Shown: positions 989 to 38,806, counted from the stretch's first letter. The stretch: 41,031 bases of DNA from a virus (IMGVR_UViG_3300043765_000050:1-41031), one strand, 5' to 3'. The notes: generated from the sequence alone by a model not told the origin. A program made the numbers and translations.

Positions 989-1213
989 ATGTCACGCAAA
1001 CGGCGGACGCTCACGCTGCGCAAAGCCAAGCGGAAACCGAAAGGAGTACCGATGCCTACTGAAGCCGCACCACAGCCGAAGACCCCGGAACCACCACAGC
1101 CGAAGCCGGGATCCCCGCCACCGCCTCCCGGGACTGACCCGCATGCCGTGCCACAGGGACCGACTACGGAAAAGGAGGAAGAGGAGGAAGAGGAAGGGAC
1201 GCCCGGCGCATGA
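989..1213 (+). CDS. Low-complexity protein (basic N-terminus, Pro-rich middle, poly-Glu); alternative start at 1052
   Basis: AAGGAG precedes ATG 1052; the stop overlaps the ruvC ATG. Confidence 0.55.
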   Translation: MSRKRRTLTLRKAKRKPKGVPMPTEAAPQPKTPEPPQPKPGSPPPPPGTDPHAVPQGPTTEKEEEEEEEGTPGA

Positions 1214-1731
1214 GTGAATTGGTGATTGGTATTGACCCGGGGCTGACGGGCGCGCTCGCCATCCTCGGGCCGTCCGGGGAAGTCATCACGCTGGCGGATC
1301 TGCCGGTTTCCCGCAGTCCCGGCAAGCTGACGTGGCTGCACGGTGCGGCGCTGCACGACATTCTGGTGACGCACATCACGGGGCAAACGACAGCGGTGGT
1401 TGAGGTGGTGCATGCGATGCCGAAGCAGGGCGTGTCGTCCACTTTCACCTTCGGCTGTGTCTACGGATCGTTGCTGGCGGTGCTGCAGGTGCTGCACGTC
1501 TCGATTCACCTGATATCACCCTCGATCTGGAAGCGGGACTTGAAACTGATTGGCAAGGACAAGAAGGCTGCGCTCGCCAAGGCCCGCCTGCTATTCCCCA
1601 ATGCTGCACTGCCGCTCGCCAAGCATCACGGGCGCGCTGAAGCGCTGCTCCTCGCGACGTGGTACATGCAGACCTTCCCGCAGCCAAAAAAAACCCCGGA
1701 CGTACCGGGGTTGCCGGAAGCGATTGCATAA
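1210..1731 (+). CDS. ruvC: RuvC-like Holliday junction resolvase
   Basis: Motifs IGIDPG, VVE...MPKQGVSSTFTFG, P..WKR and GRAEALLLA are typical of phage RuvC-like proteins. Confidence 0.9.
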   Translation: MSELVIGIDPGLTGALAILGPSGEVITLADLPVSRSPGKLTWLHGAALHDILVTHITGQTTAVVEVVHAMPKQGVSSTFTFGCVYGSLLAVLQVLHVSIHLISPSIWKRDLKLIGKDKKAALAKARLLFPNAALPLAKHHGRAEALLLATWYMQTFPQPKKTPDVPGLPEAIA

Positions 1732-2712: not shown

Positions 2713-2790
2713 GGGTTCTCTCCTGATCTTGTGGACGTTATAGCCCCCCCATGGAAACATCTTTACATCTTGATCACCTCCATGTTAGGA

Positions 2791-2861
2791 AGGTGCGGGG
2801 CCGGATTCGAACCGACGCAAACGGGTGCACATGAGTTCCCATTCGCTACCTAACCCGCACC
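2791..2861 (-). ncRNA. tRNA-fMet-like, D-armless RNA with an expanded 12-nt CAU-containing anticodon loop
   Basis: Minus strand reads GGTGCGGG TTAGGTA GCGAATGGG AACTCATGTGCA CCCGTTTGC GTCGG TTCGAAT CCGGC CCCGCACC T. This gives an 8-bp acceptor, a 9-bp stem ending in GGG/CCC, and a canonical 5-bp T-arm with TTCGAAT loop. There is no D stem and no encoded CCA. Confidence 0.8.
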
Positions 2862-5230: not shown

Positions 5231-6045
5231 TGCGGGATGCTCGCATCGCCTTGCGGGGGCGCATCATTTGCTGTTCGCTTGACGTGGCCCCACCATTCCG
5301 GTTGACATTTCGCGGTGTAATCCTTGTAAACGCGCGCTGATTGTTTCCACTTGTCCTGCAGCGCAATCATGCCGAGTTTCGCGGTTTCCTCCATCACTGA
5401 TTGGAAATCGCGGTAGCCTTCCGGCGGCGGCTGCTGCAATCCAACACCTGTTTGAGTCTCACGGGCAGCACGTCCATTTGCATCATCATCCTCGTCCCCC
5501 ACCTGCCGCGACGACAGTCCGGTGACGCCGAGTAGGGTGTAGCGTTCGAAGAACGTGCGGACGCTGGCAATGGCCTGCGCCGGGGTCTTGCTGCCTGAGG
5601 TATCCGGCGGGCCCGCAAGAGTAGTTTCTACGTAGTGCCCCTCCTCGTGCATCAGGCGGCAGGTCACGTAGACCAAGCCGTTCTCCTGCCGGTAGCTCCA
5701 CGTGTGGCACAGGCCGTGCTTGGCGAGTGCTTCCGAGACTTTGAAGGTCACTTCATCGTGCGTCGGGTAGGGGTACTTGCCGGCGTTACCGCGGTCCGCG
5801 ATGCGGTTCTTCAGGATATCCGGCGGGTCTACGTGGAATGCGCTCAGGGCCTTGGCAAAAGCCTTACGGGCGACGTTCGCCTCGTAGCGCTCCACCAGCC
5901 CCAGTATCTTGTCCAGTTGCTCAGGGCCCGCGCCTTGCGTCAGGGCCGTGTGCAGCAGCGTCAACGGGGTCACGGGGCCGGCAGGCACGGCACGCAGTTC
6001 GCGACGCACCGCATCCGGTATCAGGAGTTTCGATTCAGGTTCCAT
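5227..6045 (-). CDS. erf: ERF-family single-strand annealing protein
   Basis: KY...EV, VTCRLMHEEGH and SGSKTPAQAIASVRTFFERYTL...GL...DDDA match the ERF signature; GAGG SD. Confidence 0.85.
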   Translation of the reverse strand: MEPESKLLIPDAVRRELRAVPAGPVTPLTLLHTALTQGAGPEQLDKILGLVERYEANVARKAFAKALSAFHVDPPDILKNRIADRGNAGKYPYPTHDEVTFKVSEALAKHGLCHTWSYRQENGLVYVTCRLMHEEGHYVETTLAGPPDTSGSKTPAQAIASVRTFFERYTLLGVTGLSSRQVGDEDDDANGRAARETQTGVGLQQPPPEGYRDFQSVMEETAKLGMIALQDKWKQSARVYKDYTAKCQPEWWGHVKRTANDAPPQGDASIPQ

Positions 6046-6385: not shown

Positions 6386-6891
6386 CAGCGTGACTCCCGC
6401 AGTGCCTTGTTGACCGCCTGCGCGATCTGCGGGCCCGGGGTGACGGGAGGCTTCAGGATATCGATTAGGCCACGCTCGTACAGTTGCGCGACCGTGATGC
6501 CGTCCATCATGCCCAGCCCCTTCGCCAGTGCCCGCAATCGTTCGCAGGACACTGTGGTACCTTCCTTCGCCAGCAACTCCCACAGTTTGAACACCTTGCT
6601 AGCCACCTGCCGCGGCGAATTGTGATGCCCTGTGTTAATGCGGAACTGGCGGCCCTTCACGGTCAGCGGTTTGCCGTCATGCTCCGGTGAGGTGTTCCAG
6701 ATGCGCAGGTTGTCGCGGTTATGTACAGCCACCGTACCGTTACCCCTGCGGGCCTTGTGCGAGGTAGCAGCAGGGGCCTTGGGATTCAGGGACGCCACCA
6801 GCGCACGCTGCAGGTGCTCCATAATCAGTTCCTGCAGTTCCGCCGGCAGTGCCGGGACTATCGCGTTCCAATCAAGTTTCAATTCGTTCAT
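6385..6891 (-). CDS. Hypothetical protein (MNELKLDW...)
   Basis: AGGAG SD and GCACATGA start context. Confidence 0.75.
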   Translation of the reverse strand: MNELKLDWNAIVPALPAELQELIMEHLQRALVASLNPKAPAATSHKARRGNGTVAVHNRDNLRIWNTSPEHDGKPLTVKGRQFRINTGHHNSPRQVASKVFKLWELLAKEGTTVSCERLRALAKGLGMMDGITVAQLYERGLIDILKPPVTPGPQIAQAVNKALRESR

Positions 6892-7222
6892 GTGCATCAA
6901 CTCCTACAGTGCGGACAGGGAATGACTGCGCCCGCTCCAGTCGTTTCAATTGCTTGTCGATTTTTGCGATGGCGTTATAGGCTCTGCTGGCCTTTCTGCG
7001 CCACGCTTCCCGCCGGGATATCAGAGTAGCCATGCGTTGCAATTGCCGCGCTGACAGGCTGTGCGTGGCTGTGGCGGGCGGTTTGGCGCTAGCATCCAGT
7101 GTCCCGCCTTCCGGCCATGCCTGTGAGCCTGCCTTGACTTGCCCTGCCTTGCCTTTCCACGCCTTGCCGGCGCCTACGGGTTTACGCTTCACGACGCGCC
7201 TCCTCTTCCCGTTCCGCTTCAA
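6872..7222 (-). CDS. Basic hypothetical protein (start uncertain)
   Basis: Fills the gap in the operon; Lys/Arg-rich with a helical C-terminus. Confidence 0.5.
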   Translation of the reverse strand: MKRNGKRRRVVKRKPVGAGKAWKGKAGQVKAGSQAWPEGGTLDASAKPPATATHSLSARQLQRMATLISRREAWRRKASRAYNAIAKIDKQLKRLERAQSFPVRTVGVDAHERIET

Positions 7223-7415
7223 TGGAATTGATAGTCTCGATGAGCCGTTTCAGTTCATCGCGAAGAAGTCGCGCGTCGGCTTTACTGAGATAGATGCGGC
7301 TGATGGAATTCGCGACCGTGCCCCAGCCCGTTGAGATGGTAACGGCAACGTCTGCGCCAGCACGATGTACCTGAAGGTTGCCGGTACCCGATTCGAGTTT
7401 CATGGGAGCCTTCAT
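7182..7415 (-). CDS. Hypothetical protein
   Basis: GGAG SD and GCACATGA start; ATGA overlap with the upstream gene. Confidence 0.7.
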   Translation of the reverse strand: MKAPMKLESGTGNLQVHRAGADVAVTISTGWGTVANSISRIYLSKADARLLRDELKRLIETINSIEAEREEEARREA

Positions 7416-7657
7416 GTGCGGTTCACTCCCGGGCGCGTGTCGTGCAGTTCCTCGAAAGTCACCTGCATAGGCAGATCGTCGCGGATGCGGGCGATACGGG
7501 CACCGATCACGATCTGGTTGCAGGTATCGCAGCAGCGTCCGGTATTGATGGGCCGCGCATTGTTACCCCAGCCCACATAACGCGTACCGCAGATACTGCA
7601 GGTCTTTTCCATGTCACCACCGCGAACCGGCAGTTCCAATTTAGTCACGTCAGTCAT
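7412..7657 (-). CDS. Small Zn-binding protein (CxxC...GNN.xP...CCxxC)
   Basis: CSICG..GWGNNARP..CCDTCN; GGAG SD and GCACATGA start. Confidence 0.75.
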   Translation of the reverse strand: MTDVTKLELPVRGGDMEKTCSICGTRYVGWGNNARPINTGRCCDTCNQIVIGARIARIRDDLPMQVTFEELHDTRPGVNRT

Positions 7658-7693
7658 GTGCGTTGCTCCAAGTTATAAGTTAGGTCCAGCTTC

Positions 7694-7722
7694 AGTATAG
7701 CACGGGGGTCGGGGAAAGTCAC
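7694..7722 (-). promoter_or_regulatory. Internal sigma70-type early promoter
   Basis: GTGACT-N17-TATACT with a TGn extended -10, ~35 nt upstream of ATG 7657. Confidence 0.6.
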
Positions 7723-7723
7723 C

Positions 7724-8011
7724 TTACCTCCGATAAGGCAGCAGACGCGCCCGCCATGCGGTCAGATCCTCTCGCAGCCTGCGGCATTCCATGGCTTTGT
7801 CTTTTCCCGGCCAATCGTGCAGACAATTCAACCCGTCGTGAAAGCGCCAGATAAAGCCATGGTCCGCGGGATCCCTGCCATCACCGTAATCAACGTCCGC
7901 AATGTTGCCGTTGACCGCGACGCAGGTGCCGACCTTCACCACGCGCAAGTTGCGATAGTGAATACGGTCGCCGACCTTGGGGCCCTTGTTATCGGGTATA
8001 TCGATATTCAT
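7724..8011 (-). CDS. Hypothetical protein, possibly a small SH3/KOW-like beta domain
   Basis: CAGGAG SD, ATG 8011; KVGDRIHY...GTCVAV pattern. Confidence 0.65.
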   Translation of the reverse strand: MNIDIPDNKGPKVGDRIHYRNLRVVKVGTCVAVNGNIADVDYGDGRDPADHGFIWRFHDGLNCLHDWPGKDKAMECRRLREDLTAWRARLLPYRR

Positions 8012-8174
8012 AGCGTTTCTCCTGTAAGTCATCATCGTCATCATCATCACCATAGAAGCACCCGTCAGGCTCACAGACGCAGGTCAGCAGGTCTTCCGGG
8101 TCGCAGATACTGTCCGGGATATCGGGGGCATCACCGATCAGGTGCGCCACCGCAATGAGTGCCAGCGCGTTCAC
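7989..8174 (-). CDS. Small acidic, Cys-containing protein with poly-Asp
   Basis: GTGA overlap at 8171-8174; sequence includes CDPEDLLTCVCEPDGCFYGDDDDDDD. Confidence 0.55.
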   Translation of the reverse strand: MNALALIAVAHLIGDAPDIPDSICDPEDLLTCVCEPDGCFYGDDDDDDDLQEKRYEYRYTR

Positions 8175-8626
8175 GATTGCACCGCCTGCAGCAGATCCGC
8201 CGCCGTGAACACTGCACCACCCGGACACGGGCCCTTCGGTGCCGGCTTCGGGCTCGTCACCTTGGTACCACCGCCACCGTTGCCGTTGTCGCGGTGATCC
8301 TCCGTGCCGACCGCTCGCCCCAGCATCAGAGCCGCCGCGTAACCGCGCACCGTGTCCGCTGCGGGGCCGTTGTACTCACTCATGTAGTACCCCAGCGCCT
8401 GCAACGTATCGGCAGGGAGCGCGGCTAATGAGCCCTCAACGCGGAACACCTGCCGGCGGAGTTTGGCGCGTGCAGCTTCAGGATCCCGGCTGCGGTCGGT
8501 CACGTCGTACCCCTGCCGGTAGCCCGCGAGCGCGCAAGTGGACAGCAGGTGCACTTCGACACGATCAGGGAAGGTGAGAAAGAACGTCCCGGGCATGAGC
8601 CGCGGGGAATCAGCATTGGCTTTCAT
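8171..8626 (-). CDS. Hypothetical protein
   Basis: AGGAG SD and GCACATGA start. Confidence 0.75.
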   Translation of the reverse strand: MKANADSPRLMPGTFFLTFPDRVEVHLLSTCALAGYRQGYDVTDRSRDPEAARAKLRRQVFRVEGSLAALPADTLQALGYYMSEYNGPAADTVRGYAAALMLGRAVGTEDHRDNGNGGGGTKVTSPKPAPKGPCPGGAVFTAADLLQAVQS

Positions 8627-8664
8627 GTGCGTATCACTCCTAGAGGGGGGTTGCCTGTATCCCT

Positions 8665-8706
8665 CGCACTGAACCCGCCAGTATCCTTACCGGCAGGCTC
8701 AGTACG
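8665..8706 (-). other. 19-bp RNA hairpin with AGGA tetraloop (possible RNase III or processing site)
   Basis: CGTACTGAGCCTGCCGGTA-AGGA-TACTGGCGGGTTCAGTGCG is fully paired on the minus strand, including 4 G-U pairs. Confidence 0.75.
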
Positions 8707-8712
8707 TGAGCC

Positions 8713-9735
8713 TCAGGCGGCGACCTTCACCTGCGTCAGCAGCTTGTAGGCCCGGGCCTTGAGTGCGGCTGCGTCACCGAACATATTGGAGGCCACGCGG
8801 GCCGCATCCGAACCATCCCCCGCTGTGTCGCGCACTGTCTTGACGTGCGTGGCGTAGAAGGTGACAGCGTTGAACGCACCCCACTTGGTGCCGCGGACCG
8901 CTCCGGGGGCATTGGTGTAGGCGTCGGTAAGCGCGCGGACGGCATTTTCGGCACGGGTAGACAGAATCGACGAGCCATCAGGCCGCGTCACGCCCAGCTT
9001 GCTGATGTCGATTTCCAGCACCTCACCGAAGAACGTGACCAATTGCCGCGGAGTCATCTCGGTCGCTGCCATCTTGTTGAATTGCTCAACCACCAGCGCA
9101 CCGCCCGCCCGGGCACGCTCGACAAGCTGCACCAGTTCGCGGGGATTCAGGATCTCGGTGCTGGCGCGGATGCTGCGCAGGTAACCGTCCCGGCCTGCCT
9201 CACCGACCGCCGCGTCGTAGGTGTTGTTGCAGACCACGCGAATGGTACCGGTGAGCGCCTTGGTGCCGTGCTGCTTGTCGTAGCCGGTGGCGAGGGTGAT
9301 GTAGGGACGGAGGATATCGTTGCCGACGCGCATTTCCCCCGGGACTTCCGCGCAGACCACGATGATGCGACCGCCGCGAAGCGAGCAGCCGTGCGTGATT
9401 TCCATCTCATTGGCCGCCAGTGCATCGCGGAAGGCCTCAAAGATGTGGACTGGCTGGCGGTTCGTGAGGTGGTAACGGTCATCCGAAGTCACCGACAAGG
9501 CTTTGCCGTTGTCGGAGCGGAACTGCCCTGCGTAGCCGGGCACCTCTTTGTACCAAATCTCGCCCGCCTCGCTGACCATCTTGCGAAACAGGGTTTCGGA
9601 TTTCACCGTCCACGGGCAGCACAGGGCCGCGATTTTGTCGGGCTCTTTGCGGATCTCTTTCGGGATGCCGATGCCCTTACCCGTCCAGCCTGCGCCAGCG
9701 GAGCCGAAAACTGCAGTTTCAATATTGTCGCTCAT
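8713..9735 (-). CDS. DUF932 family phage/plasmid-like protein
   Basis: W...G, G.L.GG...., L.TGYD, IRVVCNNT and GTKWGAFNAVT.Y..H motifs; first gene after the leftward promoter; TGCACATGAG start context. Confidence 0.85.
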   Translation of the reverse strand: MSDNIETAVFGSAGAGWTGKGIGIPKEIRKEPDKIAALCCPWTVKSETLFRKMVSEAGEIWYKEVPGYAGQFRSDNGKALSVTSDDRYHLTNRQPVHIFEAFRDALAANEMEITHGCSLRGGRIIVVCAEVPGEMRVGNDILRPYITLATGYDKQHGTKALTGTIRVVCNNTYDAAVGEAGRDGYLRSIRASTEILNPRELVQLVERARAGGALVVEQFNKMAATEMTPRQLVTFFGEVLEIDISKLGVTRPDGSSILSTRAENAVRALTDAYTNAPGAVRGTKWGAFNAVTFYATHVKTVRDTAGDGSDAARVASNMFGDAAALKARAYKLLTQVKVAA

Positions 9736-9786
9736 GTGCATCGTCCTTCTGTTACTGGGTCGGCGTGATTGCTTCCCATGGGTTGT

Positions 9787-9815
9787 AATCTACTCTCGAT
9801 TAAACCTCATGTCAA
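9787..9815 (-). promoter_or_regulatory. Leftward sigma70 promoter (PL-like)
   Basis: TTGACA (9815-9810), 17-nt spacer, TAGATT (9792-9787). Confidence 0.75.
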
Positions 9816-9870
9816 GTTTCCTTTACTCGTTGCACATATGGACGCTGAGGTGAGGTATGCTGCTGGAACT

Positions 9871-10128
9871 ATGAAAACCGCTGACGCACTCGCGTTCTAC
9901 AAAGACAACGGAGCTACACTCGCCCGCGCCGCCGGGGTAAGCCGACAGGCGATGTATCAGTGGGGTGAGTACGTGCCGGAAGCGGTAGCGCGACGGCTCG
10001 ATGAATTGACCGGCGGCAGGCTGGCGTTCAAGTCCGACGATTACGTGAAGGTGCGCAAAGCTTTCCGCCGCCTGCAGGCCCGCAATAGGTTGAAGGTGGT
10101 CAAGTCACAGTCTGCCCGGGACGGGTAG
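9871..10128 (+). CDS. cro: Cro/YdaS-like HTH transcriptional regulator
   Basis: MKTADALAFY..GATLARAAGVSRQAMYQWGEYVP...L..LT.G.L is a classic Cro-like pattern; divergent from PL; TATGCT lies 9 nt upstream, suggesting a nearly leaderless mRNA. Confidence 0.8.
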   Translation: MKTADALAFYKDNGATLARAAGVSRQAMYQWGEYVPEAVARRLDELTGGRLAFKSDDYVKVRKAFRRLQARNRLKVVKSQSARDG

Positions 10129-10412
10129 GGGCAAAGGTGAAAGGCCCCGAGGACCGTTGCACTCAGCGCCCCGGGGCCCTAACCGATCAACCCTCGGTCA
10201 ACGGGTAGGGGACTTAGATCTAGTCCGGGCCCAGCATATAGCGTGAGCGTGTGAACGTGCAATGAACGTGCCACATAATATGCGGAATGTTTATGCGTGG
10301 ACTTCCCGAACCGCTCTTTTTCTGATAGCGTGGCGGACGGGGAGGGAGGGGAACACCCGGACACTTCACTCTTAAGAGACTTCACTCACTATAGCAGAAA
10401 AGGAAACGCACC

Positions 10413-10748
10413 ATGCCTGAATGCAAGATCTGCAAACAACCTATCACATTTAAAAAAATCGCAAACGGCTACCGACCCGTAAACCCGGACGGCACCGACC
10501 ACCGAGACTGTACGCAGGAGTACCGCGCACAACCTGATGTTGATCTGAACGAATCGCTCCCGGGCTGGCACCTCACTCACAAACACCTTGAAGAAATCCG
10601 TAGAGAATGGGGCGCGGAACGGCATAAGCTATACGTACGATTGGCTCAGCTTGAGCGCACGCTCGCGACCGCGAATCCGGGCACCGAAGAATTTGAAACT
10701 GCACGTACGCTCGCTGAAACTATCCGGCCAATTATGCGAGGGTATTGA
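10413..10748 (+). CDS. Hypothetical protein with an N-terminal Zn-binding motif (CxxC...HxxC)
   Basis: AAGGA SD; CKICKQPI.F...P.NPDG..HRDC. Confidence 0.75.
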   Translation: MPECKICKQPITFKKIANGYRPVNPDGTDHRDCTQEYRAQPDVDLNESLPGWHLTHKHLEEIRREWGAERHKLYVRLAQLERTLATANPGTEEFETARTLAETIRPIMRGY

Positions 10749-11056
10749 TGTCTAGAGTAAGTCTAAAGTCTGAAAGAGGATGGGACGAGTATGCCGCGAC
10801 CAAACCCCGGGACTCCCACGCAAATGGACCTGCCGCTCCCGCCCTCACCGAAGCGCACCTTGCCGAACTTGCCCAGTCCGCTACTGCCTACACACCCGCA
10901 GAAAGAGCGGTACGGCTACGCGCGCTTGACCGCATCATTGCGACAGCGGATCCGTTATCCGCTCGATACCGCGAAGCGCTGATAGCTGCCGCGGTGCTCA
11001 GGCCATTGGTGCAGGCGGAATTCACTCGCACTAATGGAACCGGGCGCGGCTACTGA
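10748..11056 (+). CDS. Hypothetical protein whose C-terminal domain is paralogous to that of 10413-10748
   Basis: TGATG coupling; shared LTxxHLxE...VRL..L.R..ATAxP...RP...RGY pattern. Confidence 0.7.
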   Translation: MSRVSLKSERGWDEYAATKPRDSHANGPAAPALTEAHLAELAQSATAYTPAERAVRLRALDRIIATADPLSARYREALIAAAVLRPLVQAEFTRTNGTGRGY

Positions 11057-11230
11057 ACGGGTGCCGGTTGCGATATACCCGGGTGAGGTCTGCAGCCAAA
11101 TAGCCCCGGCCTTACCGCAATCGGTGACCCTCTACCCCACTACTGACCCCCTCGCAAAACCCTCTCCGGGGCCTCCGTAATGCGTCCTATCGAAGCCTCA
11201 GGCCGTACCCTGCGCCGCCGCCGGTCACGC

Positions 11231-11263
11231 AAAAGAAAAGGCCCCAAGCAGTGCTTAGGGCCT
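11231..11263 (-). terminator. Rho-independent terminator of the second leftward operon
   Basis: AGGCCCTAAGCA-C-TGCTTGGGGCCT followed by TTTCTTTT, just after the stop at 11296. Confidence 0.85.
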
Positions 11264-11295
11264 AGGATGCAGTAGTAGGACAATGCGCCGGCAGT

Positions 11296-11640
11296 TTACT
11301 CCTCCCCGTCCGGATTCACGTAACCCCAATTCATCAGCAGCGCTTTTGCCTTGCCTGCCTTCAGCGCCGCGGCGTGGCTGATGGTCATCTCGCGCGGCAA
11401 GTCCTGATACCCGCTCGCCAGAATTTCGTGATCCGGGATCTGCGTACCGGTTTCCCGATACTCGGTCACGGTGAGCGCATAGCCTTCCTCTACCGGGAAT
11501 TTCTGCAGGAACAGGGCATAGACGCGCCGCAGTTCCGCCATGGTGCCAATGGAGCGTTCCGCGGTCGCGAACAGGTGCAGGTAGCGTTTTTGGTTCAGGT
11601 CGGTGGTCGCCAGCTTGCTGACGTTGATTTCGTAATGCAT
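11296..11640 (-). CDS. Hypothetical phage protein (MHYEINVSK...HLFATAERS)
   Basis: AAGGA SD; ATG at 11640. Confidence 0.75.
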   Translation of the reverse strand: MHYEINVSKLATTDLNQKRYLHLFATAERSIGTMAELRRVYALFLQKFPVEEGYALTVTEYRETGTQIPDHEILASGYQDLPREMTISHAAALKAGKAKALLMNWGYVNPDGEE

Positions 11641-11651
11641 GGCGTTTCCTT

Positions 11652-12029
11652 TCAATCGGTGAGAGATAGGCCGGACTGCTGGGCAAGGTCAGGGTCAAAG
11701 CCGGTGACGGCGCGGCCCGCGAACCACTGTATCGGCGTCATCACGCCCCACTGGTACATCTCTAGCCCGGACTGGCTGCGTACCGCGGTGGCAATCAGGT
11801 TTTCAGGATCCTGATCGTCCACCGCCTTGAGCAGATCCCGCAGCATCTCCCGGTCAATGACCAGCTTGTAGAAGCGTGACTTGCCGCGCCGACCGTATTG
11901 CCCCGGGCGCCCGTCCGCCTCAATCACGACGTCATTGAATGCATCAACGGATACGTCGCTGGGCTCGAAATAGAATCGGGTGACGGTATCGGCCTTGCCG
12001 ATATTCAGCTTGGTGATAGTGAGTTTCAT
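11652..12029 (-). CDS. Hypothetical protein
   Basis: GGAGG SD and GCACATGA start. Confidence 0.75.
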   Translation of the reverse strand: MKLTITKLNIGKADTVTRFYFEPSDVSVDAFNDVVIEADGRPGQYGRRGKSRFYKLVIDREMLRDLLKAVDDQDPENLIATAVRSQSGLEMYQWGVMTPIQWFAGRAVTGFDPDLAQQSGLSLTD

Positions 12030-12063
12030 GTGCGTTTCCTCCAATGGGTGACCGGTATGGCCT

Positions 12064-12106
12064 GCCCTTCCGCCTAGGCTCCCGATGGGGGCCTAGGGGG
12101 TAGAGC
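12064..12106 (-). other. Intergenic long hairpin
   Basis: GCTCTACCCCCTAGGCCCCC-ATC-GGGAGCCTAGGCGGAAGGGC. Confidence 0.5.
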
Positions 12107-12864
12107 TACAGCCCGAGGGATGCCACCAATTGCGCTTCCGTGAGGGCTGCTGAGGCGGTAGGACGGGCAATCGGGGTAACCCGGGGGGTTGGTACAGGGT
12201 CGGCAGGCAAGGCGCTGTAGCGCGTCGCCGCGGCGTCCGTGGTCACCTCGCCCCACGGCTGACCCCAGTGCGCGGCGCAGGTCTTGCCATAGCCCACAGC
12301 GGTTGAGCGGGCATCTGTCAGCGCCAAGCCACAGAACATGCACGAGCCCGACAGCTTGGCGTACTCGCGGGCGACCGTGACAGGATCCGCGGCAAGCCGG
12401 GTCAGCAGGAGCGTGAGTTCCGCCTTGACCGCATGCCCGTCACGCCCGACCTGCAGGTCACCTTGCGGGCTGATGCGGCCAAAGAACCGGGATTGCCCGA
12501 ACGCTTCCCCGTCGGTCAGCATCAACCAGCCGGGTGTGCGGGAGCGGGAACCGGCGAGCGTGATCCGCAGCGCGGTACCGTCGGCGAACTGCAGCCAGAG
12601 CTTGGGGTACTTGAGTCCGTGCGACTGGGCGTGGTTCAGGAGCGTCACGACGCCCGCCATTGCCGGCAGTTCCGGCGGGGCATCCTTGGGGGCTGTGGCC
12701 TTGGCGAGCAGACGCTCAACGAAGGATAGCTGGGCGGGCGAGAGGTAACCGCGGGTGCGGAAACCATACTTGCCACTGATCAGATCATAGGCCTTGCTGC
12801 GGCTGTAGGGGTCAAGGTGCGGCATGGCGGTTTCAAGGGCGTTCACAGTGTCGAGGATGTTCAT
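12106..12864 (-). CDS. DUF6011-like protein with a C-terminal Zn motif
   Basis: CMFCGLALTDARSTAVGYGKTCA matches the CxxCGxxLTDxxSxxxGxGxxC pattern; AAGGAG SD and GCACATGA start. Confidence 0.75.
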   Translation of the reverse strand: MNILDTVNALETAMPHLDPYSRSKAYDLISGKYGFRTRGYLSPAQLSFVERLLAKATAPKDAPPELPAMAGVVTLLNHAQSHGLKYPKLWLQFADGTALRITLAGSRSRTPGWLMLTDGEAFGQSRFFGRISPQGDLQVGRDGHAVKAELTLLLTRLAADPVTVAREYAKLSGSCMFCGLALTDARSTAVGYGKTCAAHWGQPWGEVTTDAAATRYSALPADPVPTPRVTPIARPTASAALTEAQLVASLGL

Positions 12865-12877
12865 GTGCAAGTGCTCC

Positions 12878-13141
12878 TTAGCAGTCGATAGCGTCATAAA
12901 TCTGGTGGAGTTGATTGCGGACTTCAGTCAGAGCCCACATGCGGGCGTTGTGCTCTGCGACTGCCTTACTGAAAGCTGCGGCGGCATCAGGCTTCACGTA
13001 GTAATCACGCATGTGAGGAGCGGTGCGGCTGAGCGCAGTTAAGGCTTCATTGATAGCTGCGGATGCGTCAGCTAGTTGACTCACAAGTCCGTTACGGCTG
13101 GTGCCATTGGAATGAACGGTCGGGAGAGTGAGAGTTGTCAT
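12878..13141 (-). CDS. Hypothetical phage protein (PTVHSNGTS...APHMRDYY)
   Basis: Starts 1 nt after the upstream stop; helical composition. Confidence 0.7.
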   Translation of the reverse strand: MTTLTLPTVHSNGTSRNGLVSQLADASAAINEALTALSRTAPHMRDYYVKPDAAAAFSKAVAEHNARMWALTEVRNQLHQIYDAIDC

Positions 13142-13142
13142 G

Positions 13143-13259
13143 TCAGCCCCCCATCACGAGGCGCGCGGCCCAGTACATCCACGCGAACACGACGGTGATC
13201 GCGTAACCCGCGAGATAGGCCGACAGCACGCTGCCGACGAGGGAAAGGGTAGTTTTCAT
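13143..13259 (-). CDS. 38-aa membrane peptide (MKTTLSLVG...)
   Basis: CAGGAG SD and GCACATGA start; hydrophobic. Confidence 0.7.
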   Translation of the reverse strand: MKTTLSLVGSVLSAYLAGYAITVVFAWMYWAARLVMGG

Positions 13260-13283
13260 GTGCGATAACTCCTGTGGGTTGTG

Positions 13284-13337
13284 TGAGCGTTCAGGGTAGG
13301 AGCACCGGCACCGCCGGCCCCCTACCCTCACCGCTCA
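13284..13337 (-). other. Intergenic long interrupted hairpin
   Basis: Nested inverted repeats TGAGCG/CGCTCA, AGGGTAGG/CCTACCCT and CCGGC/GCCGG. Confidence 0.6.
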
Positions 13338-13583
13338 GGCGGCAGTTTTGGCGGCGATACGGCTGCGGATTTCGCGGTACTTGGCGACTTCAGCGTCTAC
13401 CCAATCGGAAGCCTTATCCCAGCTGATACGCGGGTAATCGGTGAGAGCGCAGCGCGCCAGCGATTCCAGTTCCAGCGCGATATTTAATTCACCGACATCG
13501 CGGGCTCTGGCGGCACGGATCAGCATGCTGCGAAGAATGTCGTTGACGCGGGCTGATAGCTTGAAAGGGTTGAAGGTGTTCAT
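13335..13583 (-). CDS. Hypothetical protein
   Basis: TAAGGA SD and GCACATGA start. Confidence 0.75.
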   Translation of the reverse strand: MNTFNPFKLSARVNDILRSMLIRAARARDVGELNIALELESLARCALTDYPRISWDKASDWVDAEVAKYREIRSRIAAKTAA

Positions 13584-13595
13584 GTGCGTGGTTCC

Positions 13596-13730
13596 TTAGA
13601 TCAATGAGTGAATGGCGTGAGTGACGAGGTGCAACAGTCCGTGACTGGCGGCAGTAGTGAGCGTGTGCAGGCTGATATGCTTCAGCGTGTGCACGGCCTT
13701 GCTGTGGCTGAGACGGGCTAGCAGTTTCAT
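13596..13730 (-). CDS. 44-aa His-rich amphipathic peptide (not in the ORF track)
   Basis: MKLLARLSHSKAVHTLKHISLHTLTTAASHGLLHLVTHAIHSLI; AAGGA SD and GCACATGA start; its stop overlaps the next SD. Confidence 0.7.
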   Translation of the reverse strand: MKLLARLSHSKAVHTLKHISLHTLTTAASHGLLHLVTHAIHSLI

Positions 13731-13769
13731 GTGCGGTGCAATCCTTGGGTTAATCAGTGAACGAGTGAG

Positions 13770-13798
13770 AAGGTACAGAAGGAAAGAATCCTTGTCAA
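13770..13798 (-). promoter_or_regulatory. Leftward sigma70 promoter of the second early operon
   Basis: TTGACA (13798-13793), 17-nt spacer, TACCTT (13775-13770). Confidence 0.7.
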
Positions 13799-13829
13799 CA
13801 CCTACACCATTATATGAGGAGTGAGAGAG

Positions 13830-14102
13830 ATGGTTCAGCAGACTTACCGGGACGCGATGCTTCCCTATGGCTCAAACCGCTGCCGCTGCCCGACCTGTGG
13901 CCTGTACTTCACCGGTGAGCGGGCTTTTGATCGGCATCGAATAGGACGCTTGCCCAGTCGGCTAGGAGAGGCGAACGAACGGAGGTGCCTGTCAGTAGCG
14001 CAGATGATCGATCGGGGCATGGCGCTGACAACCAGTGGTCACTGGGCGACAGAACGCATGACTCCTGAACAGCTTGCCCGCAAGAGCGGAAAGCTTGCCT
14101 AG
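13830..14102 (+). CDS. Phage FDXHR-type zinc-binding protein
   Basis: CPTCGLYFTGERAFDRHRIG...RRCL; GAGGAG SD before ATG 13830. Confidence 0.75.
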   Translation: MVQQTYRDAMLPYGSNRCRCPTCGLYFTGERAFDRHRIGRLPSRLGEANERRCLSVAQMIDRGMALTTSGHWATERMTPEQLARKSGKLA

Positions 14103-15327: not shown

Positions 15328-15454
15328 GTGGCTGATAGCGGGTTGCCTGTCGGTGGTGAGTATCCTTGCCCTTTACATCGCATGGCGTGTATGGTGTGAC
15401 TGGGGGAAGCCCGTGTGGCATGAGGGCAGTAAGTGGTGGGGGCCGAATGAGTGA
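15308..15454 (+). CDS. Small single-TM protein
   Basis: MAGVLIKWLIAGCLSVVSILALYIAWRVW; overlap-coupled. Confidence 0.55.
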   Translation: MAGVLIKWLIAGCLSVVSILALYIAWRVWCDWGKPVWHEGSKWWGPNE

Positions 15455-15644
15455 TCCCATGCGGATGAATTACCGGGCGCTGTCTGGTGCTGAGAAGGCG
15501 CAGATGGAGCAGTTGAAGATACAGGCTCAGGAGTTGCACGATTACATTTCGAGTTTAGGTGCCAGTCGGGAGAGCGCCGTCAGCCTTACCCGGCTGGAAG
15601 AATGCGTCATGTGGGCAGTGAAGCATCTGACGGGGCCGAAATGA
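15447..15644 (+). CDS. Acb2/Tad1-like cyclic-nucleotide sponge (anti-CBASS/anti-Thoeris candidate)
   Basis: YRALS.AEKAQM..LK (Acb2-like YRxLS helix) and SRESAVSLTRLEECVMWAVK (SRExSxxxTxLEExxMW hairpin motif). Confidence 0.7.
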   Translation: MSDPMRMNYRALSGAEKAQMEQLKIQAQELHDYISSLGASRESAVSLTRLEECVMWAVKHLTGPK

Positions 15645-15838: not shown

Positions 15839-16029
15839 GTGCCGAGGCTGAGATTGAGGCGATGAGGAAGTGCGCGAGTGCGCTGGGGAGTCTGACGCCG
15901 GAGGCCCGCTTGCGGGTGCTGCGCTGGGTAATGGACTGGAACGCGCATCATGCCCCGCCTTCCCGGGTCGGCAGTGCCTTGCAGGAGACGTTAGCGCGGC
16001 AGGAGCAGGAGGCGATGAATCATGCTTGA
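15835..16029 (+). CDS. Hypothetical protein
   Basis: GTGA coupling; E.EAM..C..AL..L..EAR.RVLRW pattern. Confidence 0.65.
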   Translation: MSAEAEIEAMRKCASALGSLTPEARLRVLRWVMDWNAHHAPPSRVGSALQETLARQEQEAMNHA

Positions 16030-16255
16030 GCTAATCGTTATGGCGGGCCTGAATGCGGGCCCTCCGCTGGTGGTGGAACGTCACGACCGGATGCCGTGGG
16101 CGGCGAAGGAGAGTGAGTGCAACGAGCATCACAATTTGCAGCCCGACGGGGATCACGACTGTGACGATCCGACCGGGGTCACGGAGCCCGATACCTTGGC
16201 GCTGGCGTTGCTGGCGGCGGGGGGAATCGGCTGGTCGCTGCGGCGGAGGAAATGA
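16022..16255 (+). CDS. Small protein with a PEP-CTERM-like C-terminal sorting signal
   Basis: C-terminus VTEPDTLALALLAAGGIGWSLRRRK = VxEP motif + TM helix + basic tail; AGGAGG SD. Confidence 0.7.
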   Translation: MLELIVMAGLNAGPPLVVERHDRMPWAAKESECNEHHNLQPDGDHDCDDPTGVTEPDTLALALLAAGGIGWSLRRRK

Positions 16256-28011: not shown

Positions 28012-28020
28012 GAGAAGCAC

Positions 28021-31000
28021 ATGGCCGGCAATGTGACAGGTCTACACCAGTTTCAGAACGACGTGGGGCCGATCCCGCTGGCGTTGCTCGATACCAATTA
28101 CTCAGCGCTTGCGGTGGCATTCAATACGCTGGGCAATTTCTCCAACTTCTACATCGATGTGGGGACGTTGAATGCGCTCAATGTCCAGACTGCCACTACT
28201 CAGTTCGTTTCCTATACCGATGGCTTGCGGTTACTGGTGCGGGTTGCCAATACGGTGACTTCGGGTCAGCCGACGCTGAATGTCAATAATCTGGGCCCGG
28301 TCGTTATTACCAACGGAGATGGCAGCGCAATCGGCGGCGGGCAGATTACCGCGGGCAGCATCGTGACGCTGACCTTCAACCAGCCGCGTAACCGCTTTGA
28401 ATTGCTGATGGGCGGCGGGGGTGGCGGCAGTAGCGGTAATCTTGGTAGTGCTCGCGTGGGTCCAAGTGGTGAGTGGTATATCGGGCCGCCGACTTCCGCG
28501 TTAAGCACACTGAATTTGTTTGCGCCGGTGGGTAATGGTGCGCTGACCGTTGATGGTGGGGGGCCGCAGACGCAAGCGGGTATTTGGGCCGCGCAAATTT
28601 GGGCCGGAGGTGCCGCTGGACAAGCGCCGGGTTTTGCTAATGCCTTGCGGGTAAACGGTGGCACTAACGCCAATGACCAAGCCTTTGCAGTTTGGAATGC
28701 TCCCGCATCTGCAGGTGCCGCTTCAACAACGCAGTTCATGGGGATTAGGGGCGATGGTAGCGGATGGCTGGGAGCGTTCGCTTCCCCCGGTGGTACCGAT
28801 CCGCCCTACGCTCCGTTGGTTTGGTCATCGAACGGCTGGTATGCGGTAGGGCCGCCGAAGCCGGGCCCTTACGTGGCGTTCAATGTTTTCGCCTCCGTTA
28901 ATAACACCGGTTTTTGGGTGGTCGATGCGGCGCACACGCAGGCCGGAGTGTTCAATGCGATTATCGGTGGCGGTAATGCCCCGGCAGGCTTCAGTAACGG
29001 TTTAAGCGTGCGGGCCGGAACCAACGCTAATGATGTGGCATTCAATGTACAGAATTCCGCGGGCGCGCTGACATTTTTCCAGATCAACGGTGACGGTTCT
29101 GGATGGCTTGGGCCCAGTGCCGCCAATGCTTTGCACTGGAGTAATGTTGGCACTTTCTCAACGTCAGGCACCGCGAGCCTTCCCGGCGGCGGCACGGGTG
29201 GCAGTAACGCACTCTCGCAATTGACTGACGTCAGCGTTTCCAATATGACGAGTGGGCAGGTGCTCACATGGAATAGCGGCGTGTCACGCTGGATCAATTC
29301 CGGTGTTCCGACGCCTCCGCCGCCCTCACTCGCACAACTGACCGGTGTGTCGATTACGAGCCCGGTCGCTAATCAAGTGCTTACTTTCAATGGTACGGCG
29401 TGGATAAATGCGGCCCCGACTGGTGGTGGCGGCGCGGCGAACTTAGGTATTGCGACCGTCGATGCCGTACAAGGCGACTGGACGTTCAACATACCGAACG
29501 CACCTTCGACTCATACCACTGTTGTGATGAAATCGCCTGCCAATAACATGGCGTTAGCGCTGGAGAACGGTGCGGCCAATACGGTCGCCGGCAATTTCCT
29601 GTGCAATATGTGGGCGGGTGGCGTTACTGGGCAGGCTGCGGGGCTTGCGAACGGCTTAGGTATTCATGCCGGCACCAACGCCAACGATCAGGCGTTTGCC
29701 GTATGGAATGGACCTGCCAGTTCCGGCGGAGCCTCCACGTTGCAGTTCATGAGCATCAGGGGTGATGGCTCGGGATTTTTAGGCCCCGCGGCGGGTAAGG
29801 GTATTAGTTGGGATATCAACGGTAATGTCATGTTTACCTTGCCCGCGGCAACCGCTGGCGGCCAGTGGTACATGCAGCTAGGCCCCTCGACGCCTGCCTC
29901 GCCTGCTGGCATGTCGAACGGCTTGCAGATTTACGCTGGCACCAACGCGCAGGATGCGGCGCTATCAGTATTTAATGAAGCGGCGGGGGCTGAGTTTTTC
30001 CATATACGCGGGGATGGCTCAGGTTGGATTGGGCCTTCGGCGGCGAACTGCCTGACGTGGAATACCACGGGTGGTTTTTCAACGCTGGGCACGGCCACGC
30101 TTCCGGGTGGTGGTGGTGGCGGCACGGTGACTCCACCGGTAGTTTGGACTGACACGGGTGCATTGGGTGCCGGCAATCCAATACTGCGATTGACTACATT
30201 GTCGGGCGGCCAAACGTGGGCACAGGACATCATTTGCGGTACTGGCGGCACGACTGCTGTCGGCGGTCAGGGTTTGCGGATACAGGCCGGCAGTGGCACC
30301 GATGCGGCTACGAGTCACTGTTTCTTGGTGCAATCGCTCGGATATTCATTCAATTACTTGGCTATCAACCAAAACGGTGCCGGTCAGCTTGGACCTAACA
30401 ACACCAACTTCATGAGTTGGGATACGAGCGCGAATTATAGGCTCGTCGGTAGCGCTAATCTCATCGCGCCCAACATGGTTGGGCCTACCGTGATAGCGCA
30501 ACCTAGTGCCGCAACGAGCGGCGCTGCGCTGACTGTCAACAGCGGTGGAGTGGCTGGCGCGTGGGGCTTGATTGTCGGTGTGGGGGCCGGGCATGGTTTG
30601 GGTATTCAAGGCGGCACCGGTACCGCGAATTTGATGCGTGCGGTGGATTCGACTTGGACAACCTCTTTCTTTCAGATCGCTAGCACTGGCTCGATCACGA
30701 TGGCAGCGCTCCTGTCCAGTGCCAGTGCCGCGAACGTCTACCGGGATGCCACCGGTATTCTTTACGGTTCGACCAGTGCGCGCCGCTACAAAACCAACAT
30801 TCGCGCCGTGACGCGCAAGAAAGCTCGCGATGTGGTGAAGCGCTTGCGCGCCGTGACGTTCAGATCGTTGTGCGAAGGGGATGACCCCAAGCAGAATTAT
30901 TACGGACTGGTGGCGGAGGATGTTGCTGCGGTCGATCCGGGGCTAGTGAATTTCGATAAGGATGGCAAACCCTCGGGCGTGCAATATGAACGTGTGTTGC

Positions 31001-36940: not shown

Positions 36941-38806
36941 ATGCCAGACCCCGACGTTGATATCAGTGCACTCCCGGATCCGTTAGCTGCTCCTGCGCCG
37001 TTTCCTACTCTGCAGACCCCGGATCCGGCGGCACTCAGTCAGCAATTGGGGACGCAGTTCGGACAGCCGGGACCGGGGAAGCCGGTGCAGACCTTTCAGC
37101 CCGGGCAACCCAATGTCGAAGAACAGATGTTCACGCAGCAGCGTGCGCAGACCCCGGTAGCCGATGCCGCCACCGCTGCCGCGGATGCGGGATTACCCAC
37201 AGGTAAGGCACCGGGCCTCATGCCGATACCGCTTGCCGATGGGCAGGCCCCTGCCGGCGTCAATCAGGAACTGTTTACCTCGATGCTCTCTCAGGACCGT
37301 GACGCGGCCTTGAAGGCAATTGCCAGCTTGGACAGCGATGAGAAGGACGCGTTGCGCAAGAAGACTGCGATTTACAACGATCTGATCAATCAGCAAAAGG
37401 CGTTTGGTAGGGAAGAGGATGCCATTGCCCAGAAGATTGCTGATCTTAAGGTGAGTGCGGTCAAGGATGAGATGACGCAGGATCAGAAGTTAGATCAGTG
37501 GGTGCAGAATACTCCGACGCGTCAGGCTATCTATGCAACCGGCATGCACATGATGGCACCGCTTTCCATTCTCGCAGCGATTGGCGGAGCGGTGACGAAG
37601 AACAACGCGATGACCATGCTGGCGGCGAACGCGGGCATCGTGGAGGGCATCAACTCCGGCAGCGAGGCGAAATATAACGAGGCGCTGGACCGATGGAAGA
37701 TCGGTTATCAGCGAATGCAGGATCATGCCAAGAATACCGAGAAAATGTTTAATCAGATGATTGATGCTTATCAGGGTTTAGGTAATGCGCGTGAACGTGC
37801 CGCGGCGCGTACCCGCATGATACTGGGCGACCAGTTGGATGCCGCGCAGTTGAAGGTGGGCACGGACGTACAGTTACTCGACTCCACGTTGAAGGCGGCT
37901 AAGATCACCGAGAGTTACGCGGCAGCACTGGACCGGGTGGAGAATCAGCGGTTGCAGAAATCCCTGATGACCAGTCCCGGCGGTTTGGCAGCGATGGGCT
38001 GGACGCCGGAAATCATCGATTCCTACGCGGAGCGGGGATTGCGCGGTGATTATACATGGCGCGTGGGTTTGTCACGGTCGGCAGGCGGTTCCGCAATCAT
38101 CGCGGCAATAGACCGACGTGCGGCGGAAATGTCCTACCAGCGAGGCATTCCTGCGGGTGAGTTCGCGACTATACCGGCGACTGCCAAGGGACTTTCACAC
38201 GCATTGCAGGAACGGCAGTCGTACCTCGAAGCGGTGAAGCCCGCGGTCGGTCAGTTCAACAATCAGGCAGCGATCATCCGGCGACTGCTGAAGCCGGGAG
38301 TGGGTGGCGACTCACCGGTCTGGAACAAGTATCAGCAGTACGTTCGCGGTGAAGTGGCCGGTGACGATGACGTGATGGCGCTGGATCTGGCGCTGCAGGG
38401 TGCGGGCCGCGAGCATCGTCGCATCATCACCGGTCCACGCTCTAACGCCACGTTGACGGATGATGCCAACAAGCGCGCGGATGCCGTGATGAACATCAAC
38501 CTCAATGCGCGGCAGATCCTGCGTAATTTGAGAGTGATGGAGGATGAAGGGCAGGGCTTCTATAAGGCCAATCAACAGGAAGTAGTAGATATCCGCCGGC
38601 AGATTTCCAACTTGGGTGCCGGTCCGCAGTTGGATAAGCCGCCTGTCAGTGCATCGCCCGGTGCCTCATGGGAGCGTCCACCGACGCAGGTCGGGGATCC
38701 GGGCGCACAGGGTAAAACTGTTACCGGAACGGCTACCGAGAAAGGTACTGGCAGAAAAGTGCTGCAGTATTCTGATGGCTCACTGGGATACGAGGATCAG
38801 CAGTAA
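36941..38806 (+). CDS. Putative DNA ejection protein
   Basis: GGAGG SD; long helical protein. Confidence 0.65.
   Translation: MPDPDVDISALPDPLAAPAPFPTLQTPDPAALSQQLGTQFGQPGPGKPVQTFQPGQPNVEEQMFTQQRAQTPVADAATAAADAGLPTGKAPGLMPIPLADGQAPAGVNQELFTSMLSQDRDAALKAIASLDSDEKDALRKKTAIYNDLINQQKAFGREEDAIAQKIADLKVSAVKDEMTQDQKLDQWVQNTPTRQAIYATGMHMMAPLSILAAIGGAVTKNNAMTMLAANAGIVEGINSGSEAKYNEALDRWKIGYQRMQDHAKNTEKMFNQMIDAYQGLGNARERAAARTRMILGDQLDAAQLKVGTDVQLLDSTLKAAKITESYAAALDRVENQRLQKSLMTSPGGLAAMGWTPEIIDSYAERGLRGDYTWRVGLSRSAGGSAIIAAIDRRAAEMSYQRGIPAGEFATIPATAKGLSHALQERQSYLEAVKPAVGQFNNQAAIIRRLLKPGVGGDSPVWNKYQQYVRGEVAGDDDVMALDLALQGAGREHRRIITGPRSNATLTDDANKRADAVMNINLNARQILRNLRVMEDEGQGFYKANQQEVVDIRRQISNLGAGPQLDKPPVSASPGASWERPPTQVGDPGAQGKTVTGTATEKGTGRKVLQYSDGSLGYEDQQ

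Follow-up and report, generated by a model that had tools for sequence, protein, structure and literature searches.

What reads the eight bases that are repeated, letter for letter, across the start codons of ten early genes in IMGVR_UViG_3300043765_000050? The DNA analysed is the whole 41-kb virus record (41,031 nucleotides (nt), hereafter the window), found in soil metagenomes, and the repeated word is GCACATGA, i.e. GCAC-ATG-A, which spans positions -4 to +4 of the start codon and is called the tag below. The same genome encodes a 70-nt RNA that looks like a remodelled initiator formylmethionine tRNA (tRNA-fMet) and carries the complement of the tag in its enlarged anticodon loop. On the sequence evidence the tag signal is real and strong, and the genome that bears it also encodes a specific candidate reader; this is a single example, and from it we infer a mechanism.

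Twelve exact copies of the octamer occur in the window, against 2.01 +/- 1.49 expected from 100 shuffles, the largest of which held 8. Ten of them lie on the minus strand between 6888 and 13734, every one at a leftward early start, and all ten tagged ATGs begin open reading frames (ORFs) of 38-340 codons with a GGA-type Shine-Dalgarno (SD) sequence in front. The original prediction had named these ten sites and their excess over chance, and both are borne out by the coordinates, the strand, the SD sequences and the k-mer count; its chance figure of about one copy has to be corrected to about two, and two plus-strand copies were absent from its list, at 2827 (within the tRNA-like RNA) and at 37546 (an internal Met, SD not seen). 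No plus-strand copy lies at an SD-bearing start in the window. The partial versions that it had placed at 6045, 13141 and 28021 are present as described. One-mismatch versions show no excess in the window (49 observed vs 47.8 expected), and the signal therefore resides in the exact word.

The word is equally exceptional as a start context. Among the 80 SD-bearing ATG starts of the window the most frequent -4 to +4 context occurs ten times and the runner-up twice; in each of 210 other loci of at least 15 kb, mostly about 20 kb and shorter than the window, the top context reaches at most four copies. With a background tag rate of 7 in 2316 SD starts, taken from 76 GC-matched loci, the binomial P is about 1e-13. 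Among hand-listed starts, the tag is present at 10 of 26 leftward and at 0 of 19 rightward ones (Fisher p 0.002; the rightward list is incomplete). Among the leftward starts, tags are found at 10 of the 15 at or upstream of 6891 and at none of the 11 below, a cut set after the data were seen, and exact tags end before the erf, exonuclease and ninB recombination genes further down. The invariant part of the tagged starts is -4 to +4, the SD region being variable, and the flanks are biased toward C at -5 (7/10) and A at +5 (8/10). Three starts have 26 nt in common at 73-81% identity, and no upstream repeat family beyond the tag is shared among the 20 largest direct-repeat families. As to whether the tagged ATGs are the true starts, the gene calls of the protein collection on the same DNA begin at the tagged ATG in eight of ten cases; for 9735 and 6891 the exact protein is missing from the collection, and these two have another in-frame start 6 and 9 nt farther upstream, respectively, the ATG in front of 9735 being too near the SD.

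The candidate reader has a computationally predicted fold that departs from tRNA in several respects. An acceptor-like stem of 8 base pairs (bp; 2861-2854 with 2799-2792) is fully paired, with its first pair closed (no open 1:72), and is followed by a linker of 7 nt (2853-2847) that contains GG, with no D stem, by a second stem of 9 bp (2846-2838 with 2825-2817) closed by GGG/CCC, and by a T arm (2816-2800) with a canonical T loop. A CAU anticodon and the three G-C pairs closing its arm are present, and no CCA is encoded at the 3' end. The RNA is more stable than 200 of 200 shuffles (z -3.29), both stems have a predicted probability of at least 0.99 in contexts of up to 600 nt, and among the four T-loop-like matches of the window this is the sole T-arm element with a tRNA-like fold. 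ARAGORN calls neither a tRNA nor a transfer-messenger RNA (tmRNA) for it, and in Rfam it stays below the thresholds, the isolated region returning only tRNA-Sec (20.4 bits, E 0.087) and MIR168, both sub-threshold. Its 5' strand coincides with the last codons of a 34-codon ORF whose stop lies in the linker, and because of this overlap the RNA would need to be cut from the early mRNA; its 5' end is GGU, at the base of the closing stem. The pyrimidine run of the 3' trailer resembles an anti-SD sequence, and the trailer is predicted to pair only weakly with the SDs (-3.6 to -7.6). A 6-codon ORF also starts in the trailer, at 2783.

The ancestry of the RNA can be followed base by base against an Escherichia coli tRNA-Met from a three-tRNA cluster (L297), which we take to be an initiator by its features. 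One base differs in the T arm; GGUAGC, GGG, CUCAU and CCCG are retained; and the 3' 24 nt are 95.8% identical to the E. coli molecule. The AA that follows the anticodon in tRNA-Met is replaced by GUGC-A, two extra A's precede the CU of the loop, and the D arm has lost its 5' half, the leftover D strand pairing with the former variable loop. As judged from this alignment the RNA is derived from tRNA-fMet, and the 9-bp stem of the predicted fold, foreign to normal tRNA, suggests remodelling and not decay. Formylation requires a mismatch at the first acceptor pair, and L297 does have an unpaired 1:72 position. Because CCA is absent, the first pair is closed and the loop has 12 nt, the RNA probably stays uncharged.

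The loop is where the RNA and the tag meet. Its sequence UCAUGUGC (2834-2827, minus) complements the tag at every letter, and the four bases that replace initiator sequence 3' of CAU are those that pair with the GCAC of the tag, a match with a chance of 0.5-0.7%. Predicted duplexes with the ten tagged sites range from -13.0 to -16.4 kcal/mol, or from -8.9 to -14.3 kcal/mol after target opening (0.4-4.5), and opening of the loop is predicted to cost 1.7 kcal/mol. The 8-bp helix would leave the SD free and would have three free loop bases on its 5' side and one on its 3' side, which would suit pseudoknot-like stacking. When 227 tRNA cores were compared with the starts of their own locus, the window ranked first (11; next 6). 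The original prediction had inferred that the tag is read at the mRNA level, either by the tRNA-like RNA or by a RegA-like translational repressor; the first branch gains from the exact complement in the loop, and the second has drawn no positive support. The pairing of RNA and tag is probably real, if its possible roles in an off-switch, in immunity and in a private initiator are counted jointly.

The arrangement of the transcription units bears on what such pairing could do (Table 1). Rightward genes include portal, capsid and tail, and leftward genes include DUF6011, DUF932, Erf, exonuclease and a NinB-like protein; the early ORFs, the tagged ones among them, are mostly orphans, and an atlas look-up gave no family for the 168-aa tagged protein. 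The promoter and terminator scans yield no more sites than shuffles, and the units are inferred. The first gene behind each of the three putative leftward promoters (13730, 9735, 7657) is tagged, as had been predicted. The RNA is encoded toward the distal end of the leftward region, beyond its putative targets; the scan gives no promoter-like site just upstream of it. With a terminator at the hairpin at 11263, five tagged genes would sit on a transcript other than that of the RNA.

Table 1. Coordinates of the tags, the tRNA-like RNA and the putative signals of the leftward region
Feature	Position	Strand	Remarks
tRNA-fMet-derived RNA, 70 nt	2792..2861	-	fold prediction and alignment
Enlarged loop, 12 nt	2826..2837	-	2834-2827 reads UCAUGUGC
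Membrane-peptide ORF, 34 codons	2846..2950	-	coupled to upstream gene
3' trailer	2763..2795	-	pyrimidine run, then strong SD and ATG-TAA start-stop at 2768-2763
Tag	13727..13734	-	start 13730, 44-aa ORF; first gene behind putative promoter at 13798
Tag	13580..13587	-	start 13583, 82-aa ORF
Tag	13256..13263	-	start 13259, 38-aa hydrophobic ORF
Tag	12861..12868	-	start 12864, 252-aa DUF6011 protein
Tag	12026..12033	-	start 12029, 125-aa ORF
Tag	9732..9739	-	start 9735, 340-aa DUF932/TIGR03299 protein; first gene behind promoter-like site 9815
Tag	8623..8630	-	start 8626, 151-aa ORF
Tag	7654..7661	-	start 7657, 81-aa ORF; first gene behind promoter-like site 7722
Tag	7412..7419	-	start 7415, 77-aa ORF; within last codons and stop of upstream gene (ATGA overlap)
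Tag	6888..6895	-	start 6891, 168-aa ORF; inside 3' end of upstream ORF
Near-tag GCAC-ATG-G	28017..28024	+	late tail gene start 28021; 8 pairs, one G-U
Near-tag	1206..1215	+	Holliday-junction resolvase start 1210; 10 pairs, one G-U; strongest predicted duplex, -17.2
Putative leftward promoter	13770..13798	-	TTGACA, 17 nt, TACCTT; by eye, unreported by promoter scan
Promoter-like site	9787..9815	-	10/12 match; divergent from cro-like gene at 9871
Promoter-like site	7694..7722	-	9/12 match, TG before -10
Terminator-like hairpin	11239..11263	-	would end first leftward unit
Terminator-like hairpin	1692..1712	-	ends leftward region downstream of the RNA

The reading that we favour, tentatively and as something close to an even call, is that of a tRNA-scaffolded antisense RNA that pairs across the tagged starts and acts as a delayed off-switch for the ten early genes. 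Transcription of the distal part of the leftward early operon would produce the RNA, which would be released by an RNase P-type cut at its 5' G together with 3' trimming, and left uncharged. Its loop would then form the 8-bp helix over -4 to +4 of every mRNA with a tag. For five genes or more this pairing would take place in trans; the helix would be spanned, in the manner of a pseudoknot, by the three bases of the loop on its 5' side, and its position across the start codon would block ribosome loading. Being made after its targets, the RNA would turn off the first-expressed genes with a delay, the recombination genes being without an exact tag. It could do so by masking free mRNA or by occupying the peptidyl (P) site of the 30S subunit as a dead-end initiator mimic; given the retained GGG/CCC pairs, a decoy bound to the ribosome is conceivable and so, with lower probability, is a private initiator. 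If this reading is true, a phage can control a regulon by altering the anticodon loop of an initiator tRNA that it has captured. RNAs of this kind escape ARAGORN and Rfam and may be common, and a loop-programmable binder of start codons would be a useful tool for synthetic translation control.

By analogy, the RNA would function most like the C4 antisense RNA of phages P1 and P7, of which it appears not to be a member. C4 RNA is released by RNase P cleavage at a GGW start, and its loops occlude ribosome-binding sites (PMC5320573); a size of about 70-77 nt, a tRNA shape, the GGU start, presumed release by RNase P and loop pairing with ribosome-binding regions are common to both. In contrast, C4 uses two loops (a' and b'), whereas here a single anticodon-derived loop on a tRNA-fMet scaffold would serve ten starts on at least two transcripts, and the isolated region gives no Rfam C4 match even at E 10. 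A second precedent is offered by the start-associated sequences (SAS) of Cluster K mycobacteriophages and Cluster EF Microbacterium phages, whose authors left it undecided whether RNA or protein is the reader (PMC3203893, PMC7302621). These sequences also form a conserved word in one orientation at the starts of many non-structural genes (10-19 genes), but they are 13 bp long, take the place of the SD 3-7 bp before the start codon and are often accompanied by repeats further upstream. The tag, unlike SAS, spans the start codon itself, with a variable SD and a candidate reader in the same genome. SAS were described in 2011 with the reader unnamed (PMC3203893); here tag and candidate reader match letter for letter within a 41-kb genome. 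The tRNA-like domain of tmRNA and bacterial Y RNAs are likewise tRNA mimics that have an acceptor arm and a T arm while the D region is reduced, as in the 70-nt RNA. The latter differs from them in giving no ARAGORN tmRNA call and no Rfam match, and in having no tag reading frame and a start-complementary loop instead. In the literature covered, which is incomplete, no paper was found that describes a phage mimic of initiator tRNA with complementarity to a start tag common to several genes.

Several observations weigh against a delayed RNA off-switch. Both flanking preferences, C at -5 and A at +5, are mismatches to the loop, and untagged starts pair through G-U nearly as well or better (1210, -17.2; 4153, -13.6; 28021, -12.1; 4830 and 5111, -11.8), so that a restriction to early genes is less clear-cut. 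Across the 736 cases of a looser control, the window has the highest count (8 vs at most 5) but not the highest fraction of candidate starts (0.036 vs up to 0.075). The proposed direction of the effect is drawn only from gene order and the lost tRNA identity elements. No homologue of the RNA was found by pattern scans (four viral, one metagenome), in nine close capsid relatives or by model searches. A further genome with DUF6011 in common (G026; L664) has nine exact forward copies of another word, CCCAGGAGGG, and none in reverse, with no T-arm match in its 81%-complete record, and in a family of enlarged-loop tRNAs (G011-G015) a start tag is found in none of the five genomes.

Among the alternatives, one that is unlikely though still worth weighing on the sequence is that an initiator-derived RNA with its P-site determinants retained recognises eight bases as an 'extended start codon' on the 30S subunit. 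It would serve there as a dead-end decoy or a dedicated initiator, and would thereby give the phage its own means of controlling initiation at selected genes. Like tRNA-fMet, the 70-nt RNA has CAU with U33, GGG/CCC below the loop, a near-identical T arm and 3' acceptor strand, and pairing 5' of AUG; unlike it, it lacks a D stem and CCA and has a 12-nt loop (7 nt in tRNA) and a closed 8-bp acceptor stem. The three G-C pairs are those reported to license use of the P site in initiator tRNA (PMC5389676). The extended -1/37 pairing described in PMC10018350 amounts to one extra pair, against four upstream of AUG here. Were the extended-start-codon reading true, the RNA would count as a programmable initiator tRNA of natural origin, start-associated sequences would gain a named reader, and the case would be categorically new.

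It is also unlikely that no regulator exists at all, the octamer being a favoured context of strongly expressed early genes that was spread by recombination and the RNA a decayed tRNA or a remnant of a phage attachment site (attP). The 26 nt common to three starts would fit such spreading, start words are found elsewhere without a T-arm RNA (in G026, and at two genes of the syntenic, truncated G005), and a 3' end nearly identical to tRNA-Met is as in attP cores. On the other hand, two tags (7412 and 6888) lie inside upstream coding sequence, the close capsid relatives are without such a word (top count at most 2 in nine of nine), and the match between loop and tag would be left unexplained. 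The attP remnant in particular was rejected: no integrase family was found among the ORFs scanned (64 in PHROGs, 47 in Pfam), and an attP core has no need of the paired 5' strand and the new 9-bp stem.

Rather unlikely, in turn, is an operator read by protein, in which a phage or host RNA-binding protein would recognise YGCAC-AUG-AA and the loop match would be accidental. This explanation takes up the flank bias at -5 and +5 that the RNA leaves unexplained, and an unrecognised reader may be among the many orphan early ORFs; T4 RegA provides the precedent of a single protein that represses about 30 start regions overlapping AUG (PMC3014915). RegA sites, however, are described there as A+U-rich and without a conserved word, whereas the tag is invariant and G+C-rich. 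No RegA-like or other RNA-binding family was found among the ORFs scanned (RegA-like: PHROGs, 64; Pfam, 47; NCBIfam, 24), and a coincidence of 0.5% would be required in the one tRNA-like RNA of the window.

Control of immunity or of a carrier state by RNA, as with P1 C4 or P4 CI, in which the 70-nt RNA would silence lytic early genes during dormancy and block superinfection, is by analogy quite improbable. A cro-like gene at 9871 lies opposite a leftward promoter with no cI gene between, the first gene of each leftward promoter is tagged, and membrane-type orphan genes follow the RNA before the terminator. The scanned ORFs, however, hold no integrase or partition family, no promoter-like site lies directly upstream of the RNA, and a prophage state is not indicated by the capsid, which has no close match in genomes and 11 distant ones in bacterial bins of mixed taxa.

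Quite improbable as well, on the sequence features, is a private initiator, in which the RNA would gain CCA, be charged with Met and favour the tagged mRNAs through its extended anticodon, boosting the early genes. CAU, the three P-site-licensing G-C pairs and the initiator T arm are kept, the 8-bp helix leaves the SD unoccupied, and one added 37/-1 pair between tRNA and mRNA boosts initiation in E. coli (PMC10018350). Against this, CCA and the D stem are missing, the first acceptor pair is closed, a 12-nt loop would hardly suit methionyl-tRNA synthetase or the P site, and the RNA is encoded downstream of the genes in need of a boost. A DNA methylation or operator site was rejected, the word being non-palindromic and always in the ATG register on the sense strand.

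In the first viral pattern scan for homologues of the RNA both matches were ordinary long-arm tRNAs; the 113 matches of the second were only ordinary tRNAs or chance; and there was no homologue among 121 of about 1100 and 120 of about 140 viral matches, whose folds were in part inspected by eye. None of the 100 metagenome matches (79 distinct) is D-armless with a 9-bp stem. BLAST of the 70-nt RNA returned only T-arm pieces of tRNAs, and that of 8 kb of the early region three short DUF6011 matches. The nine capsid relatives (G001-G009; 80-88%; one complete, the others 38-53%) share few early genes and have neither RNA nor tag, the T-arm element of G002 showing a different fold and no start-word match, and no tRNA-like T arm was found in five 57% relatives. 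A one-sequence structure model run over 61 and 100 sources gave only the window and weak tRNA matches; on four bins and G026 it gave nothing at E 0.001, a weak search, as the bins' own tRNAs were also missed. Close relatives are lacking for DUF932, exonuclease and DUF6011 (best 31%, 54% and 65%). The sequencing runs that contain the phage are three soil DNA samples, with no RNA sample listed. Two of the soil samples contain nearly identical strains, recovered as short pieces; the differences listed for them touch neither a tag nor the RNA, and the comparison is uninformative.

In the strain variant from the two other soil samples, differences cluster at 13779-13844, in and upstream of the putative promoter at 13798; those at 13779, 13783 and 13790 fall in the promoter spacer, and both hexamers are spared. 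In G026, CCCAGGAGGG is an SAS-like, extended-SD word in one orientation, with sites between 7113 and 54197, several of them at gene starts. In G005 (L214) two leftward early genes, 4831 and 2885 (minus), share about 20 nt around the start, AGGAGATTCACCG-ATGAAGCT; this tag differs from GCACATGA, and the record ends before the expected place of the RNA. The five genomes G011-G015 (L300, L302, L332, L343, L395), from provirus-type records, encode close to one end a conserved RNA of tRNA shape whose loop has 17 nt. More tRNA scaffolds with enlarged anticodon loops, some with CAU, occur in L420/L445, L492, L494, L423/L435, L316/L330/L383 and L307/L313/L346, with no clear start tag in their available flanks.

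Downstream of the RNA (2760-1777, minus), a 98-aa membrane-type ORF (2699-2403) is overlapped by a 327-codon cysteine-rich frame that has no family match; these ORFs are possible exclusion or conversion genes. The divergent region 9735-9871 has a P22 Cro-like gene facing the leftward promoter-like site, with no cI gene between. On the plus strand, a protein with an Acb2/Tad1 hairpin domain (15366-15644; Pfam PF24729, E 5e-14) is likely an anti-defence nucleotide sponge, and a 77-aa ORF (16022-16255) ends in a PEP-CTERM-like tail (E 6e-6, above the cutoff) that may hint at an exosortase host or be due to chance.

Long imperfect hairpins immediately precede the SD at three tagged genes and at erf (minus; 13337-13284, 12113-12058, 8718-8653 and 6119-6072). 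The regions fold at -29 to -48 kcal/mol, and those before the three tagged genes are mutually unrelated. They resemble the RNase III sites at which T7 early RNA is cut, and comparable hairpins seem, by eye, to precede early genes in G005.

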